This document shows, piece after piece, positions 5,899 to 32,649 of a DNA stretch of 64,000 nt. Position 1 is the stretch's first letter, and each line of letters begins with the position of its first letter. The stretch comes from Rotaria socialis (taxonomy: Eukaryota): assembly GCA_905331295.1 (NCBI GenBank), contig CAJNYD010000044.1, forward strand, positions 124,001-188,000, in the 5' to 3' direction. The notes under the pieces were generated by a model. It made no database searches. It was not told the origin of the DNA and saw only the letters and a program-made list of their open reading frames with translations. A program made the translations under genes and the position numbers.

Positions 5899-7157
5899 GA
5901 CGATAATAATTATTTTGAGTGTAATTTTTATTGGAAAAAATAATATATTAAAAGAGCACTTTAACTGTATTCGTTCTGTATATTCACGAAGAAAAATATG
6001 TTTGCGACTTACGCTAGTGTCCAGAATCGACTTGAAAACGAAGTAATGTTACACTTCTTATATTACTATACATACATATACTATTAATGAAAGGCAATAA
6101 AAGTGATTTGATAAATTCGAACATCATTTTCGATCCTGTGAAATAGTTCAATGGCATATTGAAAGCACTGCCGTATAAATCTTCCACAGAGCAGAACCCG
6201 ACATACTTTTAAAATTTTCTTTTTTCAACCGACATGTTCATTGCCAATTGGAATCGAAATTCTTGAAAATACCCATAGCTGCTTATCGCACATGTCAAAC
6301 GAGAATTTGAATGTAGAAATACTAATTTTACAACCCATGCCCAATGATACCGTATAAAATAAGACTTATTGAATATATACATGAAATTGCACTTGAATCT
6401 TTTCCATTACCGATGTCATGCTAGATATAGAAGAAAATTTGCTCTCAAAAAAAGTTGTGAACAACGAAACCATACATTCCATTATGGATGAAATATTTCA
6501 TGATCTTGATAGTTTTTATGCTGAGCAAGAAGAAAAAAAATTGTACACTCGAGCAATTTCAAAAAGCTCTTGAAGTCTATCCAGGGACGTCCATGAAACA
6601 AAATTAAAAGTAACATCACTAATAAATGTACTATTTCATAACTGATTCCTATTCTTTTTTTTAGAGTACAGCAACACAATAAGTGACTGAAGATACACGA
6701 AAACTCAAATGTTATCAATAGTTAAGTTCCATTCATAACAATAAAGATTATATTCATTATTGAAAAACAGAGTTAACAAAATTCATGATGCCTAATTTTA
6801 TGTAGGAAGCATCAATACACATTTCATATCGTTGTTCATATCGATGCTTAATAAAATATTTGTCAGAATTTTAGCTGTTTTTATTTCATGGAAAAATATT
6901 GATACTATGTGTTGTCTCGTTAAAATTTTCGCTGTAGCACTCAATCAGTTTATGTATGAAATACATTCATTTGTTGTATTATTAGTATAGATTAGACCGC
7001 ACCATTGATTCGAGATTTTCATTCAAAGACAAATAATAACAAAATTAAATATTATATTTATCAGTAGGATGATGTTTATATTAGAAAATAAGAAGACTTT
7101 TCAAAAAGACATACAACACAAAATGTATATACGGAAAAAGAGACGTATACAAATATA

Positions 7158-9287
7158 TCAAAAGGCACTTTTCACATGTTGAGCTTCGATAATAACTTTA
7201 ACTGGTCGAGCATTTGATAACTGTTTTCCCGCAGACTGACTTCTGTTTAAAGCAAAAGAAATATATTTATTTTTATGTCATTAATAAAAATTAATCATAC
7301 GTACTCCAGTACACGTCTCGATGATAAAATCATTAATGGATTTGTTTGACTCATTATTTCATCATTAACTGAAATACCATCAAGATATTGTTTTAATAAC
7401 ATTTTTAATTGCATATTTTCTGATTGTAAAATACTTCGTTCCTTTTCTAAAGTTAATTTATCTAATGATACTTTACTAAATCGTTTCCAAAACATTTCAA
7501 GCGAATCAAATGTATACATATCCTTAGATAATAAAAAAACACACACACACAAAATAATCCATAAGTTGATGAAGAAAATAAAATCATACTTTTGCTAGTT
7601 CTTCAAATGGCGGTTCATAAAATGCTGTTTCAACTTCAGCACGTTCTTCATCAGACAATGTTGATGAATAGAATGGTAGAATTTTTTCTTCTTCAGCTTC
7701 TAATTTTCGACACATTTCAGAGAATATTAAAATAATTTCAGCTGTTTTAACATGTTTTTCAAGTTTTTTTTCAACTGTATCGCATGCTGTAGCAAGTTTA
7801 ATTAAACGTCGACGTAACTCATCTTGCATGTCCAATAATTGAGACTTTAATTGAAGTAAATACTGTTTCATGCTTTCTTTTTCCTAGGAAAAGAAAAAAA
7901 GAAGCGCTAATAAATTTAAAAAATTAAAACTTCTCTGGTATGTAGTCTACTATATTTATCTTCAAGAGTAGCTGCGTAGGAAATAATGTTCAAAAAGTCA
8001 AGCTTTCAGATTCATGATAAAGAGTAATTTCCTCAGTGTTACTAACAGAGAATTCCTGACAAATAAGAGTTAGATAAATTTCTCTTGAATGTTTCTCGCA
8101 CTACTGTTTTAAAGAGTCATACTTCGATATCTTTATTTTAACTATGAATTTAAAATTCTCATTACTTGTTGCCTACAAAATTACATTTTTAATTAAATTT
8201 ACCTGTGCAACTTTATTCATTCTTGCTTGATGATTGGCTTCGAGAGCTGCGATTTGAGATTTAACGCCATTAATTTTTTCCTAGAATATTTCAATCGTTA
8301 GTTTTTTGTAAGATCATATTTTCTGTTCAGTACTTACAGTTATCTTGTTAATATAAATTGTTGCATCACGAATTTCTTTAGAATTTTTTTCATCTTTCAT
8401 TTTATATTCTTGATATTGTGCTTTACTTTCTCTGGTTCGTTCTTTATAATTATTTGTTATGCTTGTCATTTCATTTTGTAATGACGTTGAACGACTTTCA
8501 ACATTCAATTGATATTGTTGTAGATCTTCTCGATACTTGAAAAGAAGAAAACAAAAATAGCCGATGATAGTCAGAGGAGCGTTATTTTGACTAAAATCTA
8601 CAAACTTTATTACGTAGTTCTTCCATATTCTCTTCGAAATTTCGTTCAGCTAATTTTTCTGCATCAAAAAACGTTTTTTCCATATTATAGATAATATCCT
8701 GCAATTCAGTTTTTGAGATATCATGATCACGAATAATTCTCGCACGTTCTTCACGAAATTCATATTTTATCTGTTCAACATCTTTTTCATATTGTTCAAG
8801 TAGTTTTTCAATGGTTGATGTGTGCATTGCTATGTATGAAATTGAAGGGAAAAAAGCATTTCCATCAAATTTTCACTTACTAATCATTTTTTCAATAGCT
8901 TCAAAAAAACTTCGTAATGACATATTATATTGTTCTTCCGCTTCTTCAATATCTTTCGATGATGCTTTAATGACGGTATCTTTTCGATCAATAATACGTC
9001 CGAATGTTTGTGATAAAATTTCAATTTCTTTTTTTAATTCTTTTGATTTTGCTGCTCTCATTACCATCAGCCATTGCGTATTTAATTTAAATGTATTATT
9101 TTGCGTAAATTTTTCTTCACGTGTTAATTTTTCCTTTAAAAAATTTATGTTTGGAAAGAATTTATATTATTTTATTAGATAAACCTACTCGTAGAAAATT
9201 ATCCATAACAGCTTCTTTGACTTTATTTTGCACCTCTTCTTCGAGGGCCTTTTGCGTAGCAAGAAGATCTTGTTCTGATGTTTCCAT
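7158..9287 (-). CDS. CCDC65: Dynein regulatory complex subunit 2 (CCDC65/DRC2)
   Basis: METSEQDLLATQKALEEE..FLR|EKLTREEKFTQNNTFKLNTQWLMVMRAAKSKELKKEIEILSQTFGRIIDRKDTVIK..DIEEAEEQY, then EMCRKLEAEEEKILPFY, FWKRFSKV.LDKL and LKQYLDGISV match DRC2 hallmark motifs. Stop TGA at 7158-7160. Confidence 0.93.
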
Positions 9288-9360
9288 TTTGTTTTTCTTT
9301 TTTCCTTATCTATAAAATAAAATGGTTAAAATAATAAATATAAAGAATTGATTTATTTAG

Positions 9361-9388
9361 AAATAAAATAAAATAAAATAAAATAAAA
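9361..9388. repeat. (AAAAT)n tandem repeat; U-rich tract on the minus-strand transcript
   Basis: aaataaaataaaataaaataaaataaaa lies in the CFAP68-CCDC65 spacer. Confidence 0.9.
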
Positions 9389-9411
9389 TTTTGCAAAGCT
9401 GTTCTTCTAAT

Positions 9412-10028
9412 CTATTTAGCTCCGGGATTTATTTCCATACAAGCGATACAACGATTTTTAACTGCTGGATCTTGACGATAGTCGACAGTGAGTGTATATG
9501 GTTCAGGTTTTGGATCAACTGTATATGTACGATCTTTACAATGTAAACAAACTTTTGTTGTTGTTGGCCATGCTGGATCATCAGGTGCCAATGCACGCTG
9601 ACAATTGCGGCAATAGCCAGAACGATATTCAGTTAAATAAGTATTAACTGATGTTTTCATTTGAGGAAAATCGAATTCCGGTTGATGACCCGGGAATGCA
9701 TAAGCACGAGGAACTAAGAGGAAGTTTTCATTTCAATAGTCAATTTATCTTCAATAAAAAGACTCACGTTCAAGGTTACGCACTTCAGGTCGTGGTGGAT
9801 CCCCTCGAATAGTACCATAAGCACATTCATATGTTGTACCAAAATGATGATCATTCTTTAAACAAATCAATGTTAAAATGTACAAGAATGAATGAGATAA
9901 CGAGAATCAACCTGAGAAGGAAGAGGTTTTTGTATTCGTTCGTTTTTTACATCAGCTCGTTCTTCTAGCCAATTATTAATTAATGTATGATTGCTGTAGG
10001 GACGACGAACGGATCGTGCTTGGATCAT
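9412..10028 (-). CDS. CFAP68: CFAP68/C11orf1 (UPF0686) ciliary microtubule inner protein, with Cys-rich C-terminal extension
   Basis: Three exons: MIQARSVRRPYSNHTLIINWLEERADVKNERIQKPLPSQ|NDHHFGTTYECAY..|..AYAFPGHQPEFD.. These match the C11orf1 motifs YSNRTLMGNW..ER, KPLPSQ..HYFETTY and FPGHQPELD. Confidence 0.85.
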
Positions 10029-10104
10029 ATTAAAATTAATGTTATAGAATCGACAAATATGTTAACAAATACAAGATGTCATACATAGAAAAATTTTGTT
10101 TTTC

Positions 10105-10117
10105 GTTACTTAGCAAC
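10105..10117. promoter_or_regulatory. RFX X-box
   Basis: GTTACTTAGCAAC (reverse GTTGCTAAGTAAC) fits GTYRCY-N-RGYAAC and lies about 80 bp upstream of the CFAP68 ATG. Confidence 0.75.
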
Positions 10118-10359
10118 GAACAAAACTTCAACGTTTTATCTAATGAGAAGATTTAGTATTTCTTTGCTTTGGAATATATCTGAAATAAAATCTGACGTTT
10201 CTTATAAATCTTTCAAATTCCATCATACGTTGCCTTTATACTAGCGCCCTCTCTTGGTCAGTAATTCATATATTTTAAAACCTTATTTTATTTCATCGCA
10301 AAAGAAAAGTAGAACAAATTTAATAAATGTCTATAGAAGAGTCAATTAGATAAATAGGC

Positions 10360-11038
10360 TTAAAATTTCTTCAGATAAACGAAGATATTGATCATGAAAA
10401 ATGCATATGGAACATATGACCAAACCAATCTTTCAGTTCCACTAATAGTGCTAACGGTTGGGCATGGTGGACCTGTTGCTGTGGACGTATTCGCTACAGT
10501 GCCATTCGCGTCGAGAATACTAGTTATATTCACATATTCTGTGCAAGGAACTGTTTGATAAACGGTTCTTTCTCCTACAATAAATAAACTTGAGATTTGA
10601 AAGAAAACTGATTAATTGAAAGAAAAAGCATACGAGCAAGAAAACCAAGTTCGACCGCTAGCGCTGCAAGAAGCAACGTAAGAAGAAGTCCTATGAGTAA
10701 ATAAGCCCAACAAGGACATAAACATGAACGACATAATGATGATGCGCATGGTGGACAACAGCATTGACATCGACTTATATTCGTCTATTGGTCAAGCAAT
10801 AAAACAATTTGAGAAACGTTTTAATGAACAATTTTATCTTACACTGAGAAGTTTTGTATTTCGAACACGTTGTTTTATCGGTGGTGTGATTTGAGTTTCA
10901 GTGACATAATGAGTTTCACCAATTAAATTACCTGGTTGAAGACCGATTGAAGCCTAAGTTGAAAAATGCTTTTAGCACAAGACAATTCCCTAGTCATCTT
11001 ACGGCTTGTCGTGTTGTATAAGTCGCGGGAGCAGCCAT
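10360..11038 (-). CDS. Small Cys-rich membrane protein with one TM helix and a hydrophobic C-terminus
   Basis: Four exons: MAAPATYTTRQA|ASIGLQPGNLIGETHYVTETQITPPIKQRVRNTKLLS|TNISRCQCCCPPCASSLCRSCLCPCWAYLLIGLLLTLLLAALAVELGFLA|RERTVYQTVPCTEYVNITSILDANGTVANTSTATGPPCPTVSTISGTERLVWSYVPYAFFMINIFVYLKKF*. Splice phases are consistent. Confidence 0.75.
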
Positions 11039-22347: not shown

Positions 22348-23214
22348 CTGAAAAATCAAGAAATATTATTTTGAAAAATAAACGATTCAAAAGCCCCTTG
22401 TTCTTGCAAAGTCCAGTAAACTTTTTAAGAATAGATAAATAGTGACTTTACAATTCATTCTTTAGATTTACAAAGATCAACCGGTATAATATAATGGTTC
22501 AAAATGTGTAAATACCTTTCCTTTCGTTATGTCTAATGAGTCATGACGGCTTAGTGAAACCAATGAACAATCAATAGATGTCCTCCTAACATAATCAAAT
22601 TATATTTATTCCTACAGTTGATCAAATACTTTAAGAACTCATGATTTCAAACAAATAGTCTAACAGCATCAAAATACTGAAGAGTTTTTTTTTAGAAAAT
22701 TCAATGATATATATTTATATTCGACATCGAATTTGAAAAGAAAAACCGCAAGTAAGACAAGGCTCGTCAATAGAGAATAATACTTCTGGGAAAGAGAGCA
22801 TCGTGTATTGGATGAAGCTGCATCAATTATGCATCTTTCTACTTTTTCAGTGAAAACCTTTTTGAAAAAATATTTAGGGAACGATTATTTTGATGGATGA
22901 ATACAACATTTGATTAAATCTTAAGCAGTATAACTCGTCAACACGTTGAGAAACTCCATGTATTGCGTAAAATAAGGAAGAATCACTTTAGTTCCACGTT
23001 TAATCTGTTTAGATAATAGAACGTATCTGAATCATTTCCTCATTTACATCTTAGTTCAATTCAATAAAATGTTTCTTTTATCGTTAAATCTCAAAAACAA
23101 AACCATTGGTCTTACTAGTAGAATAATCTGTCTAACAACAGAAAAAAAAACGAACGAACAATAAAAAAAACAAAAAAACGATAAACACAAGAGAAAGTTC
23201 AGTTTCGAGAATGT

Positions 23215-23980
23215 TCAAGCAAGAATTTTCGACCGTTCACGATATGCAGTCCACCAAATAAGTCCAAATACGATAACAGCAAAAAATTCACTCGGCAGCC
23301 ATGGACCATAACTTGCTCCCTATAAATAAATAAATTTCTTAAAAATCACAACATTTTTTGTCTCATACCGGATGGCTTAATTCAACTTGACCAAATGGTT
23401 TAACTGCTTTGATAGCATCATCCGTTCGAGCCTACGAATAGATATTCACGATTTTAATCGATTTATTATTCTACAAATAACTTACTTTACGTAAAGTTGA
23501 ATAAGCTTCATCATCATATAATTTAACTATTGTAGAACCTTTCGCTAAGTGTTTATGAGTTGAAGTCGCTACACTAACCTAAAAAATGAATAAAGAAGGC
23601 TGATTTCTGTTTTGTTTTATCGATTCGCTTCATACATAATATTTTCCAGGCGATGAAACTGATTGAGCACAAGGAATAACATGTCCATTAATATCAGCAT
23701 ACAGAGTGCCTGGCTAAAAAAGATGTAGGACTTGTTGTTTTGAAAACGAAAAAATAATCACAAACTTGTTTTCCATTTTTGCATTTAACACTTATTTCAA
23801 GTTGAGCAGCTGATTCAGCTGTAAGACGAGCATCTTTCGTTGAATATGAATTAACTGTGAATTGTGGAGATTCACAATTTTCACCTGAAACAAAATAAAT
23901 TATCGAATAAATAAAGTAACCTTCTTTTTACCTCTGGCAACGGTGAATAGCACGAAAACGGCAAAAATAATTGACTTCAT
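23215..23980 (-). CDS. SSR4: Translocon-associated protein subunit delta (TRAP-delta)
   Basis: Six exons: signal peptide, ENCESP..SYSTKDA, LYADINGH, LYDDEAYSTLRKA, HPGASYGPWLPSEFFAVIVFGLIWWTAYRERSKILA*. Confidence 0.93.
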
Positions 23981-24314
23981 GGAAAAATATTGAATCAGCT
24001 TGTGAAAAAATACCAGCTACTGTTTGTTTGATGTGGCAAATATCGATGATAAAGCACATACAGTATTTCATTGGAGCATGTCTACTTATCAAAAATCAAA
24101 ATCGATTTTTACGATAGATGGCTTTGATTTGATCTCTTGTATTTTATTTGAAAAAAAATAATTAAAAAAGAAAGATTATTTTATTTAATTTTTAGTTGAA
24201 TCACAAGTGAGGACGGAGAAATAATTTTGAATGATCGATTTGCATGAACCAATCGATGATTTCCACAATAGAAGTACCTTTGCTTTCTATTTTTTTGTAC
24301 ATGACAGTCTAATA

Positions 24315-25496
24315 ATGTCGAACATGAGAATCGTTATTCAATGTTCAATTTTTATCTTTTTATTCCATTTTGCATCAAGTAACAAAGATGCTGTCACATG
24401 TGGCTCATCATTTAAATTGGTTAATCAGCAATCTGGAGATCGACTTCATTCGCATGATGTTAAATATGGTTCCGGCAGTGGGCAACAAGTAAGTTATTAT
24501 TATTATTTCAATTAGTTTAGCTTCAAAAATTTGCCATTTAGTCTGTTACTGGTACACCTAATGCTGATGATGTGAATAGTTATTGGCAAGTTCGTGGTGA
24601 TATAAGAAGTGATTGTGAACGAGGGTAAATAATAATTTCACAAGATTTCTTTTATTTGCTAACTAAGTTCTTTTTATATTTAATTCAGAGCTCCGATCAA
24701 ATGTGATACTGTCATACGTTTATATCATGTTACTACTCATCGAAATTTACATAGTCACAATTATCCTTCGCCATTATCAAACAATCAAGAAGTATCAGCT
24801 TATGGCGAAGAGGGTGTTGGAGACGAAGGCGATCGATGGAAAGCTGTTTGCACCACTAAAAATGATTATTGGTTAAGAAAAGATCCTATTCGATTACAAC
24901 ATGTTGTTACTGGAAAGTAAGAAAACATAGATTCAAATTTTAGTTATAACTGTTCCTCCTAAATTCATAACGACGGTTTTCTATCAGCTGCGGAGAATAG
25001 ATAAAAGTGAAAAGTTTTCCTCACGCATAGCTAAGTTCAATGCACAACGTGGAACAATACCTTTCGATTGATGAACTAAAACATCTTTCCCAATTCTCTT
25101 TCTGAGTGTACTGCGATTGGTTTCGATATTGAATACTATTTTACTACTCGAACACTCGGATATCCCCTTGAGGAAACTCTGTTCTACTATAATACTATTC
25201 GTAATTATTAGATATTTAAATCACAGATATCACCGGTTAGGCTTCGAGAAAGGATGGATAGATTTAAAATTCTAAAGTATTTGTTTAGATATCTTCATTT
25301 GAGTGGTGATACATATGGTCGACCCATTCATGGTCAAAAAGAAATCAGTTGTTATGCATATGCCAATAGTCAAAATCTTTGGAAAGTTGATGCCGGTGTT
25401 TATGTACGACAATCATCGGAACCATTGTCATCAACACGTGATGAGAACTACAACGCACAATCATCAAAAAATGATCATTTCGATGATGAACTTTGA
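24315..25496 (+). CDS. SDF2: Stromal cell-derived factor 2 (MIR-domain ER protein)
   Basis: VTCGSSFKL..RLHSHDVKYGSGSGQQ|SVTG..DDVNSYW, RNLHSHNYPSPLSNNQEVSAYGEEGVGDEGD, YGRPIHGQKEI. Ends in DDEL*. Confidence 0.95.
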
Positions 25497-25908
25497 ATAA
25501 AAACTGCTTAACTATTTGATAGGTTCTGTCGTTTTTCTTTCTCTCAGATCATGATGGTGTGATGACGCTTTTTCTATGTTTTGGTTTTGTTAATTCTTAG
25601 CTTTATTTATTTTTCAGTTTGACATAAAAGAACAAGATGAAAAAGAAGGATCGATGTGAAACAGCGAGCGCAAGCATCTCTTCTTTTAAATAGATACTTG
25701 ATGTGTTTGTTTTTCTCAATCGTTAACATGTTTGATAACATTCCTCGATGTTGAAACCTAGAATTATGGTTTCATTAAGATATTATCTATGTATTTGATG
25801 CACTTTAACTGATAAATCTTGTTGTATTTCCTTTTATGTTAAACAAATAAACAAGCATGAAGTCATTGACGTGGTTTTAATTGTTCTTCTATGTTTAAAA
25901 GTATAAAT

Positions 25909-28463: not shown

Positions 28464-29961
28464 ATAAACTTTCAGTAAAAAGCAAATTTAATGTGGCCCT
28501 AATGTGATCGATACATTTCAACAAGATTATGAATATACACTTCCTTAAACACCTGATGATTATGTAAAACATTGGTTATGAATAGTTCTCATATTATTGT
28601 CTTCATATACCAAAATCGAATATACCGAGTGGTGCTCGCTATTGGTACGTAATATTTTATATTTTGTTAGTTTGGTGGTAAGAGTGATAATTTGACCCGA
28701 ATATGGTCAATGCTCTTGTGTATCAATATAAAAGCTTTCACTGTTAGCTTGGAAAGAATATAGAATTCTGGATGTGGATGTGATCCTTTCGTTTTAGATG
28801 CACACCCATGCCATATGAATCTTTCCTACACCCCACACTCTTGATAAAATTACGTGAATAATTTTGAGCAGGATCAATAACTGTATTTAAACGATTATTT
28901 GATGAATAAGAATTTTCTATTTCATTTGCATGGTCAACAAGTCCTTTTAAAGATTTTCAGCTTGTTTTTTTATATTTGTATGAAGTTCCGTAAATAAGTT
29001 TTCCTTTTTATCAATATCCATAGATTCATTTGACTTTTTTTTCTTTGCAATATGAACACAAGAACAAATGAGTATTTAGATAGAGCGTCAGTTTTCATGT
29101 TTTCATTGAATTATTTGTGGTATTTCACTTTGAAATTATATTTCATAACATTCAAGTGTACTTAAATTGAGAGCAATACATGAATTTGACTCAGCAAAAT
29201 ATGGAATACAGATAAGACGAACTTGAATACCATTTGGTCCTAGAAACAAAATTCGAATATTATATTAAGAAATATTCCGGATGGTTAAACTTTTCAAAAG
29301 GATTCAAGTCTTGTAAATAACGTCGCCAATCGATTGTCTAGTTACTTTTTAAAAACCAATTAAGTTTTAAAAGATGAAATTAGAATCGCGTCTACCTTTA
29401 TTTTTCTCTAAGGATAAAGTCATCTGACGTTCTCAAATATTACTTTGGAGAAAATTGTAAATGTAAACTTTCGCATTCAATGAGTACACTTACAAATTAG
29501 TTTCATATTGTCTATATATCTATGGAACACAATCATTCGTATACTTTAAAATGGTCTTCATAAGTAAAAAATCGAAATAAACTAAACGCTTAAGTTTACC
29601 GGTGGAAATGTGATTATGTAATGAATAAATTCAAACTAAAGTATTTTCTAGCAATTTAATTAATCGAGGACGACAAGTTTTAATTAAATGAGCAAAAATC
29701 TCATCTGTGCATTTCCACAAACGAATTAATTCTTATGGAAATCAGTATTGGCAAAAAGGCAATCACTGTTTGAAAAACTACATTTTATAATGCGAAGGTT
29801 AAAAATCTGTCATGCAAAAGCAAAATAGAAAATTAATCAAAATAGTGCTTAGTACAATCACTCTTTTCGACATTTTGATTCTGAACACATATTCGGAATG
29901 AGCGAAAAACGTTTCAGTCTAACCAGTGATCGAAAAACTAGTAAATATTATGCGTCAAGAC

Positions 29962-30025
29962 TAGAGAAGCGCGAGATCAACTTTGTTTGGTCCCGGTAAC
30001 ATTTTCTCGGTCTCGCGCATCTCTA
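29962..30025. mobile_element. 64 bp minimal hAT-type element / hairpin
   Basis: TAGAGAAGCGCGAGATC versus reverse complement TAGAGATGCGCGAGACC. Flanks GTCAAGAC and GTCAATAG match at 6 of 8 positions. Confidence 0.65.
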
Positions 30026-30125
30026 GTCAATAGTGTATTTTGAATGATGAACTTTATAAAGAAAAAACTGATTTATTGTTCTCATTTTAGGGTTTTCAAC
30101 AAGAGTAAATAGATAATGATCATAC

Positions 30126-31780
30126 CTTGAACCAGACATATGGATAGCAACCTACAATATCATAACTACTTTTATTGTTAAAGAACTATTTTATTATAAT
30201 TAATGTATTAGGACGTGTTGGTGCAATAGCACTCCATTTAAGACAATCTTCAAGTATCTGAACACGACTCTCAATAGTTGATTGAAGATCAATATCATCT
30301 AAATCCTGCCCTGATGTGCCAGGAAAACTATAAATCTTATGTAAAATATGAACAGAGACATAAAAAAAAACTTCTCTCAGTAAATATCACCAATTTGAAA
30401 ATCATATGCATGTGACAAAACAATGAAAAGCAAATATTAAGAAAAAGCCTTTTCTTTAAAATTTACCTTGGATCATTCACGCCGGGCATGATATCAATAT
30501 CAGTTATTGCCTAAGAAATCAAAGTTTCCAGAAAAATACAACATACAGCAGTTTTATCAAATAATTCACCAATAGTATTCATTGCTTCAACACTACTTGC
30601 TGTCATTTTTCGTGTTAAATATTTCGCCTTAAAATAGCTCAATGATTATTATTTATGATAGAAGAAAATATAACTAACTTGATTTGTTGAATCTTTAAAT
30701 CAATCTGAACTTTCAGTTGAATTACCAGCAACAAAAAATCGAACAATATTACGTAAAATTAATTTTATTTGTTCACATTGAAGATTTGTTGGTCGAGTCA
30801 ATGAATTAATAAGATATTCAAGTTGATTAAAGATTATTGAGGTTTCAAATAAAATATATCTATAAGATATATATGTTCAAAATTTTATCCTAATACATAT
30901 AATTCTTACTTATCCTCCGTTGGAGGTGATAATGTTTTTGGTATTGAAAGATCTTTACAACAATAAACTGTAACAATAAATACACCTTCGTCATTTTCAT
31001 AACCATGTACCGCCATAACAATACCTATTCAGAATAAAAATATGGATTTTAACAAAAGATGCAATCGAACATTGGTTACTGAAGTGCCAATAATAGATCA
31101 AGCCTTTTCGTGCAAAACAAGTAATGCTTCATTCATTCATTTGTTTCCTGCCGTTGGATCGGTCATGAAATTTTGTCCACGCATCTATAGGCTGTATACT
31201 CATTAGAAACACTCCCAAATATTGATCTAGAACGAATTTATCCTTGATAAGATATTTACTTCAAAGAAAAAACATATGTTTTGAGCTTTGTTTCAAAAAA
31301 ATAATTTCGATACAAATATGTATGTCATACCCCAAACTTCTGGAATTCTTCTTGTGACTATCAAGGAGAACATTTTTGTTCGAAATCTTATTAATCAGGT
31401 TTTTAGTTTATGTTCGAAAATCGAGTCAAATGCCAACAAGCAAGCCAAAATAAAAACTTTTACTACTGTTCCTGACCAATCGAATAGTAATAGTCTCAAG
31501 CGAAGAGCAAATGGACAGTTGGAAATGCTCTTATGAACTGTTCTGCTATTAGCCTCGAGTTACTCAGACACTACCTTTGGTTCGAAGACCAGGGACTTTC
31601 GTAATATCTAGTTCTAAGCTTATTCATTATCAATATCAGGTATTTAGTTGTTTTAAGGTCAATAGATGAATGATATTATTTAGATGATACGCATTGCCAA
31701 TAATATACAAATCGGAATATTGTCTGGAAACTTGTGTACTTCGAAGTTCATTAATGAAGTCTGACTAGTCATTTGCTTTT
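30126..31780 (-). pseudogene. POLD2: DNA polymerase delta subunit 2 pseudogene (intron-containing)
   Basis: RQYSDLY/LLAMR (frameshifted), GIVMAVHGYENDEGVFIV, IVRFFVAGNS, AKYLTRKMTASSVEAM, DIDIMPGVNDP, GTSGQDLDDI..IAPTRPNTL, CYPY. There is an in-frame TGA in SSD*FKD, the PQQPLHPC exon core is deleted, a donor is lost, and no C-terminus is visible. Confidence 0.88.
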
Positions 31781-31880
31781 AGTGTTCAATTTGTAGAACC
31801 GTAGATTACTCGCCTGCTGCTTTAATTTGACCATTATGGAAAAAAAGAATCAAAATAAAATCTGTATGATCAATTGTGAA

Positions 31881-32102
31881 TAGGGAACTGCGGGACCGCC
31901 TTTTTTCGTTCCTCCCCGTTATGGTTCTAATTCTATTTAAATTTTCTATAGCTTCCTGTTCCTGATTATTTAACAACAAGCACCTTTCGCAAGATTAAGG
32001 CTGAGTTTTTATATGTGTTTTTAATAAAAATATGTGTCAGGATCAGCTTCAAAAATTATAGCTCTCGATCCCACAGAACCGGGCCCACTTTGCAGTTTCC
32101 TA
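31881..32102. mobile_element. 222 bp hAT-type MITE with 8 bp target-site duplication
   Basis: Ends TAGGGAACTGC and reverse complement TAGGAAACTGC. Flanks ATTGTGAA (31873-31880) and ATTGTGAG (32103-32110). Confidence 0.8.
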
Positions 32103-32649
32103 ATTGTGAGAGTCGCTCTATATGATTTAATTACCCGTAATCAATTGATTAATATCAATTTTTCCAGCAAGTACAATTTTTTGTGTTTCTTCTTCAAGAA
32201 TTAATGTATCAGTGGGATCAACATAACGTGTGCGAGCTGGTTGTAAATCGAAACCGTTGTAACAACAACAGAAAAGAACGTTTATTTTTCGATTTATCAA
32301 AAAAAGAAGATAAATTATTTACTTCAGTTGTTAATTGTTTAACAATACTTGGCTTCGAAACCATTTGTTTAAATAAAATTTTAATAGGAATACATCTTCG
32401 CCTAATAGGAGATCATCCTTTTTTTTTAATTGGTACTTTTTAATCTAAAATTTTCGAATGAGTTAAAGTGGTTTGATCGTTTTTTTTTAAACTAATTAAA
32501 CCAACCGCAGCGATCTATCAGCTGCTTCTGAAACCAATTTTTGCATCGCTCCAAGGTACTCGGATAAGTTCTTATATTCGACTAAAACAAAGCAAGCGAC
32601 AGCGATAAGGAGCTCATACTGATCTTCACATATCTTCAAACATTCACGA

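Follow-up and report, generated by a model that had tools for sequence, protein, structure and literature searches.

Do two ciliary genes of the rotifer Rotaria socialis that stand 124 nt apart share one promoter and one primary transcript? The genes, CFAP68 and DRC2, lie head-to-tail on the minus strand of a 64,000-nt stretch (GCA_905331295.1, contig CAJNYD010000044.1, positions 124,001 to 188,000 of the forward strand; all coordinates below refer to this stretch, the window), with a gap of 124 nt from stop to ATG and of 102 nt from the stop to the nucleotide at which DRC2 RNA is joined to a spliced leader. A preliminary description of the window had proposed that an RFX-binding X-box drives the pair as a dicistronic unit, which is then resolved by polyadenylation and trans-splicing. 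We found that DRC2 is trans-spliced, and we consider it likely that CFAP68 and DRC2 form a single dicistronic operon, whose transcription would probably be driven by a predicted RFX (X-box) promoter immediately before CFAP68.

RNA evidence was drawn from four contig sets (X9–X12) of 24 runs matching the window, from three studies. Their RNA status was guessed, and was accepted because the contigs are spliced and skip introns. The contig joints, given in 13 rows of which two are variant duplicates, have GT–AG ends and include the three introns of an upstream neighbour, g0; none of the four sets had any depth in the bin inside the 319-nt intron or at 10122–10272. The minus strand of the window carries three spliced genes in tandem, in the order g0, CFAP68, DRC2.

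The identity of the gene pair was judged from profile and structure-database matches. The first gene is CFAP68 by its Pfam match and its similarity to solved CFAP68 chains: exon 1 scored 26.9 bits against PF06608 (cut-off 24), exon 3 reached 18.4 bits, under the cut-off, and a PDB sequence search with exon 1 returned solved CFAP68 chains at E 2e-5. Both CFAP68 introns are present as joints in the RNA contigs, and the reading frame ends with a TAG at 9414–9412. Judged by the same kind of evidence, the second gene is DRC2/CCDC65 and is nearer to DRC2 than to DRC1. Its exon 2 matched PF14772 (NYD-SP28) with 74.1 bits and its exon 7 PF14775 (NYD-SP28_assoc) with 29.3 bits; the six PDB matches of exon 2 at E up to 0.1 were all DRC2-type chains, five of them named DRC2 (best E 4.5e-20), and no chain named DRC1 was among them. 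Six of the seven DRC2 introns were seen as joints, and the same contigs also run across the seventh, which lies inside a masked repeat. The preliminary description had placed two axonemal genes on the same strand with a stop at 9412, an ATG at 9287 and 124 bp between them, and every one of these coordinates checked out.

Trans-splicing of DRC2 RNA

DRC2 RNA carries the rotifer spliced leader, attached exactly at 9309, in two of the four contig sets, X9 and X12, which stem from two studies and bear two organism labels. The loose end of the X9 contig at 9311, read together with the genomic AG, equals nucleotides 2–23 of the Rotifera leader at 22/22 positions (leader as printed in Table 1 of PMC3795323), and the loose end of the X12 contig contains the last 13 nt of this leader, followed by the DRC2 5′ untranslated region (UTR). 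The leader sequence was not found encoded in the 64-kb window (best match with 7 mismatches) or in nine related loci (at least 7 mismatches). DRC2 is trans-spliced at 9309, and the leader joining that had been foreseen for this acceptor is confirmed by both loose ends. A cis-junction into 9309, named in the preliminary description as one of the findings that would speak against it, is absent from the 13 joint rows of the four contig sets; cis-splicing into 9309 and a CFAP68–DRC2 fusion were therefore rejected, the leader having been found there instead.

The leader on DRC2 is the general rotifer leader, and no specialised second leader of the type that SL2 represents was found on this downstream gene. 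One leader form is given for rotifers in the available text of PMC2481426, and the available parts of PMC1925144 and PMC4824033 report a spliced leader on over half of bdelloid transcripts. The leader also marks the source of the window as a probable bdelloid, a monogonont set of expressed sequence tags having lacked it. Two other properties of the contigs carry no weight in either direction. No contig bridges the spacer in the four sets, and this has no bearing either way, the repeat at 9355–9395 having been masked in mapping; contig depth over DRC2 was at least that over CFAP68, and was not used as evidence, as contig depth cannot rank genes.

A probable shared transcript and its alternatives

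In animals that possess a single leader, a leader together with a short distance (<250 bp) serves as the working criterion for an operon (PMC12460157, available text), and operons have been called by distance filtering (PMC7986045, available text). CFAP68 and DRC2 display this combination, namely short spacing on the same strand and a leader on the downstream gene, from which we infer that the two are co-transcribed. The spacer contains an AATAAA at 9352–9357 and the acceptor at 9310–9311, 22 nt before the ATG, both exactly where the preliminary description had located them. Two further spacer features that it had pointed out fared less well. The spacer is indeed free of GT, an outcome seen in 0.7% of 20,000 mononucleotide shuffles, but GT occurs in the spacers of two of the five relatives compared (L001 and L004); the (TTTTA)n tract is present in the window but not conserved in the relatives. 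Both weigh little because neither is conserved, and both were rejected as functional requirements. A scan of the spacer for sigma-70 promoters, which gave one match versus 1.3 expected, was set aside as inapplicable to a eukaryote.

The relatives are nine loci (L001–L009) obtained from 114 pattern matches in one metagenome scan, among which L003, L005 and L006 share a single CFAP68 exon 3 sequence, L004 and L009 are nearly identical in that exon, and L007 and L008 end inside CFAP68. At four-fold sites of CFAP68 exon 3 they differ from the window at 9/39 to 20/39 positions. In 7/7 loci whose sequence continues beyond the stop of CFAP68 (four sequence types), DRC2 comes next, with spacers of 76 nt in L001, 73 nt in L002 and 85 nt in the L003 type, L004 and L009, so that the spacer measures 73–124 nt across all sequence types, the window included. 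The acceptor context TTTTAG|ATAA is kept, and in L001, L002, L004 and L009 the end of an AATAAA is 23 nt away from the junction. The preliminary description had called for a check of the pair in other rotifers; in the relatives, order, short spacer and acceptor are kept in all seven loci reaching DRC2. Alignment of the relatives brought out no conserved spacer element other than AATAAA and the acceptor. Comparison of the L003-type flanks with the window gave no match outside the three genes.

The X-box was claimed to lie only upstream of the first gene, and it proved to be the sole conserved X-box at the locus, none being found in the spacer or in DRC2. It is kept 62–80 nt before the CFAP68 ATG in 7/7 loci with upstream DNA, representing five distinct sequence types. 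A strict X-box pattern, shaped after the site had been seen, matches nowhere else in 64 kb, with a mean of 0.2 in shuffles. No match to GTHNYY-AT-RRNAAC, the pattern of the C. elegans type, was found in the window, and the published pattern GYTRYY-N1-3-RRHRAC fits the X-box, but with six window matches against 5.3 expected it does not rise above chance. The weight of the X-box therefore rests on its position and conservation and not on the match, in keeping with a report that an X-box match alone is not predictive while conserved sequence and position together predict RFX targets well (PMC2375033, available text). Control of CFAP68 by RFX through this site is predicted. The mouse gene 1110032A03Rik is presumably Cfap68. 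In the supplement of PMC7498320, as far as it was available, this gene is marked down in two columns of a knockout table seen without its headers, and the genes recorded close to peaks of RFX1 and of RFX2 include mouse Ccdc65.

CFAP68 looks like the first gene of its unit because the nearest AG upstream of its ATG is 80 nt away, within the X-box, no acceptor is conserved there, and the extra 5′ letters of the X12 contig are not leader. This contig reaches 10062 and then continues for 24 letters without a match in the leader, the window or the related loci (best 8 mismatches). Of the other CFAP68 contigs, that of X10 begins at 10035 and that of X9 at about 10020 (estimated from binned depth), short of the ATG. 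No leader was seen on CFAP68 in the contigs, those of X12 and X10 passing the ATG.

Several observations weigh against a single transcript. The leader was found in only two of the four contig sets, the contigs of X10 and X11 ending short of the DRC2 5′ end. In bdelloids, more than half of whose transcripts bear the leader, its presence next to a short spacing is not proof of an operon. The conserved gene order is weak evidence because g0 is kept too, in 7/7 loci with upstream DNA, as is a divergent RRM gene in L001 and L007. The 42 nt between AATAAA and the junction lie within the cut-offs of 60–84 bp for tunicates, but they are counted from the signal and not from the cleavage site. A loose X-box-like 12-mer with zero spacer occurs in CFAP68 exon 3 of L001, L002, L004, L007, L008 and L009, that is, in 6/9 loci. 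Finally, a DRC2 promoter inside CFAP68 is possible, as contigs cannot show start or poly(A) sites; no poly(A) end was seen in them.

One alternative is two independent genes in a compact genome, with a DRC2 promoter in exon 3 or the 3′ UTR of CFAP68, a short outron and trans-splicing of the monocistronic type, for which the wide use of the leader and the exon 3 12-mer could be cited. We nonetheless regard this arrangement as unlikely. The 12-mer belongs to the coding sequence, lacks a central spacer and is absent from the window and from L003, L005 and L006. CFAP68 contigs extend to 9396–9398, which leaves at most 86 nt, AATAAA included, up to the leader junction; a separate start for DRC2 would need to be located within the CFAP68 transcript. 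The spacer stays short in every sequence type and holds nothing conserved beyond the signal and the acceptor.

Hybrid operons, in which a downstream gene is served by the operon promoter and also by a second, internal one, occur in C. elegans. Such a dual supply of DRC2, from the X-box promoter plus an internal promoter, fits everything seen here, and members of Ciona operons accumulate without tight coordination (PMC1488885, available text), but our search for a conserved internal promoter element found none, and we rate it a little lower still, as improbable. A longer operon that begins with g0, or a CFAP68 promoter that is not driven by RFX, is the least probable alternative: g0 is on the same strand and adjoins CFAP68 in 7/7 loci with upstream DNA, and the published X-box pattern is not above chance, but 331 nt separate g0 from CFAP68 with zero depth at 10122–10272 in all four contig sets, neither a conserved acceptor nor a leader was seen for CFAP68, and the sequence and distance of the X-box are kept in five sequence types, a good predictor by the account in PMC2375033.

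The single operon thus stands as likely, short of proof, and its expression could proceed as follows. RFX would bind the X-box in ciliated cells, and polymerase would start about 20–40 nt downstream of it. CFAP68 mRNA would keep its own capped 5′ end, and its 3′ end would arise by cleavage downstream of the AATAAA, no more than about 40 nt from the acceptor. The downstream RNA would be capped through trans-splicing of the single bdelloid leader at 9309. The prediction is that CFAP68, a doublet inner protein, and DRC2, a nexin-dynein regulatory subunit, are expressed together. Since only 23 nt lie between the AATAAA and the junction in four of the relatives, cleavage and trans-splicing would take place at nearly the same point, much as in the short-spacer operons of tunicates or chaetognaths. 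Where the relatives are cleaved is ambiguous because L002, L004 and L009 have a second AATAAA 50–57 nt upstream and two AGs are candidates in the L003 type. In operons with such a near-zero gap, one precursor may yield just one of the two mRNAs (PMC1488885, available text), and tight co-regulation of levels is for this reason not automatic.

Neighbouring features and other close pairs

Table 1. Features of the CFAP68–DRC2 locus, with positions in the window
Feature	Position	Strand	Remarks	Basis
DRC2 3′ UTR	6977..7157	-	Extent of X9 contig; X12 contig to 6965	
DRC2 (CCDC65) coding sequence	7158..9287	-	482 amino acids (aa), 8 exons: 9287-9189, 9133-8881, 8829-8606, 8535-8338, 8280-8203, 7883-7590, 7522-7305, 7242-7158; ATG at 9287	Gene model
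Spacer	9288..9411	-	124 nt, 86% A+T; CFAP68 3′ UTR, predicted poly(A) signal, acceptor, DRC2 5′ UTR	
Trans-splice acceptor AG	9311-9310 (feature 9309..9311)	-	Leader attached to 9309; AG 22 nt before DRC2 ATG	
AATAAA, predicted CFAP68 poly(A) signal	9352..9357	-	Ends 42 nt before leader junction	
(TTTTA)5 tract	9361..9388 (five copies at about 9388-9364)	-	Absent from relatives	
CFAP68 (C11orf1/UPF0686) coding sequence	9412..10028	-	168 aa, 3 exons: 10028-9912, 9855-9768, 9713-9412	Gene model
X-box, predicted RFX site, near-palindrome GTTGCTAAGTAAC	10105..10117	-	Ends 76 nt before CFAP68 ATG	
Conserved motif AGAGAGGGCG	10245..10254	-	Between g0 3′ end and X-box; longest invariant run, 10 columns, in 6-sequence alignment A2	
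g0, same-strand upstream neighbour	10360..11038	-	170 aa, 4 exons; Cys-rich stretch, then hydrophobic segment	

The upstream neighbour g0 (Table 1), whose three introns were seen as joints, is transcribed to about 10297, and the two exons scanned against Pfam gave no match. Its stop and the ATG of CFAP68 are 331 nt apart, and g0 is probably a separate transcription unit. The motif AGAGAGGGCG is invariant in L001–L003 and L005–L008, usually with YTAG next, and stands 202–235 nt before the CFAP68 ATG; the pattern AGAGGGCG[CT]TA occurs once in the window. The motif resembles the core of a CTCF site, with CTCF itself not confirmed in rotifers, and may be a boundary or promoter element.

The rotifer CFAP68 extends about 70 aa beyond the end of the Pfam profile (9415–9620, minus strand), and this extension carries three CxxC motifs in 6/6 loci compared; it is possibly zinc-binding.

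Two further minus-strand pairs in the window have similar spacers, as read from the sequence alone. RPB4 (57334–56803) is followed after 99 nt by striatin (56703 downwards), with an AATAAA that overlaps the RPB4 stop; TTTCAG, which resembles an acceptor, stands 51 nt ahead of the striatin ATG. A 91-aa open reading frame (ORF; 22347–22072) is followed after 123 nt by an RPA43-like gene (21948–21313; PDB E 9e-4), and the spacer holds an AATAAA and the context TTTTATAG|ATAA, the same as that of DRC2. The 91-aa ORF has no significant Pfam or PDB match; its C-terminus is reminiscent of APC16. We regard both pairs as candidates for a second and a third operon. Close-spaced pairs are probably a general feature of bdelloid genomes, the ciliary pair being one example. 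Because two housekeeping pairs of the same window are similarly spaced, the cilia-specific frame in which the preliminary description had set the locus is probably too narrow.

Elsewhere in the window, a DNA polymerase delta subunit 2-like gene (PF18018; about 29100–32400, minus strand) has exons that appear broken by stop codons and a long insert, and is possibly a pseudogene or the site of an insertion. At 23214–25500, genes for TRAP-delta (minus strand) and a MIR-domain SDF2-like protein (plus strand), both with endoplasmic reticulum functions, stand head-to-head about 350 nt apart and possibly share a bidirectional promoter.

Meaning and comparison with known systems

Operons are entered as not determined for rotifers in Table 4 of PMC2481426, as far as that source was available. 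No description of a rotifer operon, and no precedent for an operon driven by an X-box, was found among the literature matches listed, subscription papers being outside the search. CFAP68–DRC2, as a likely operon, would be RNA-backed evidence for operons in rotifers, with a named gene pair and a mapped leader junction, and it bears on how often operons arise after the gain of trans-splicing. Rotifers offer a close comparison with and without the leader, because bdelloids have it and a monogonont appears to lack it (an expressed sequence tag set from a monogonont is reported to be without the leader in the available text). If the X-box drives both genes, the operon would serve a cell-type programme. 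Annotators should be aware that a promoter may be common to bdelloid genes spaced about 100 nt from each other. We advance more tentatively, as a possibility short of an expectation, a wider reading: bdelloids may have many undescribed single-leader operons, with cleavage and trans-splicing no more than about 25–40 nt apart, some of them cell-type regulons, and at this locus a CTCF-like-bounded RFX promoter may drive both cilium genes. Such cell-type regulons, if real, would contrast with the mostly housekeeping operons of other animals.

The comparisons that follow rest, where published work is concerned, on the available parts of the sources. C. elegans operons of the SL2 type resemble CFAP68–DRC2 in their stop-to-ATG spacer of about 100 nt with an AATAAA, a U-rich stretch and an acceptor. 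They differ in having an operon-specific second leader, whereas DRC2 carries the one general rotifer leader, and in the distance from poly(A) site to acceptor, which is about 100 nt in C. elegans and is predicted to be under about 40 nt in the rotifer pair. SL1-type operons of C. elegans keep the AATAAA with little or no intercistronic DNA (PMC1488885).

Tunicates (Oikopleura dioica and Ciona intestinalis) and chaetognaths (Spadella and Paraspadella) belong to a different phylum from rotifers. As in the window pair, they use one leader for monocistronic and downstream genes alike, the genes of an operon stand head-to-tail, and the upstream gene need not be trans-spliced. The distance from 3′ end to acceptor is very short, as is predicted for the window pair, at 23–30 nt in Oikopleura, mostly none in Ciona and 3 nt in Spadella. 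Most upstream cistrons of Ciona and Oikopleura are without a canonical AATAAA, whereas CFAP68 has one; Ciona operons 41 and 43 are backed by dicistronic cDNA, whereas for CFAP68–DRC2 co-transcription is deduced from the leader and the spacing (PMC1488885). Operons of chaetognaths are biased towards metabolic genes of low cell-type specificity, whereas the window pair consists of cell-type-specific ciliary genes (PMC12460157).

The human pair TMEM138–TMEM216, co-regulated by RFX4, resembles the proposed CFAP68–DRC2 unit in that unrelated ciliary genes stand head-to-tail under one RFX element; there, however, the RFX site is intergenic and no leader is trans-spliced, whereas in the rotifer pair the X-box precedes the first gene and the second is trans-spliced (PMC3631122). 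In the bdelloids Adineta ricciae and Philodina, the trans-spliced leader is identical to that of DRC2 over the 22 nt seen. It was published as a replacement of the 5′ end on over half of mRNAs, and here it is tied to a candidate operon.

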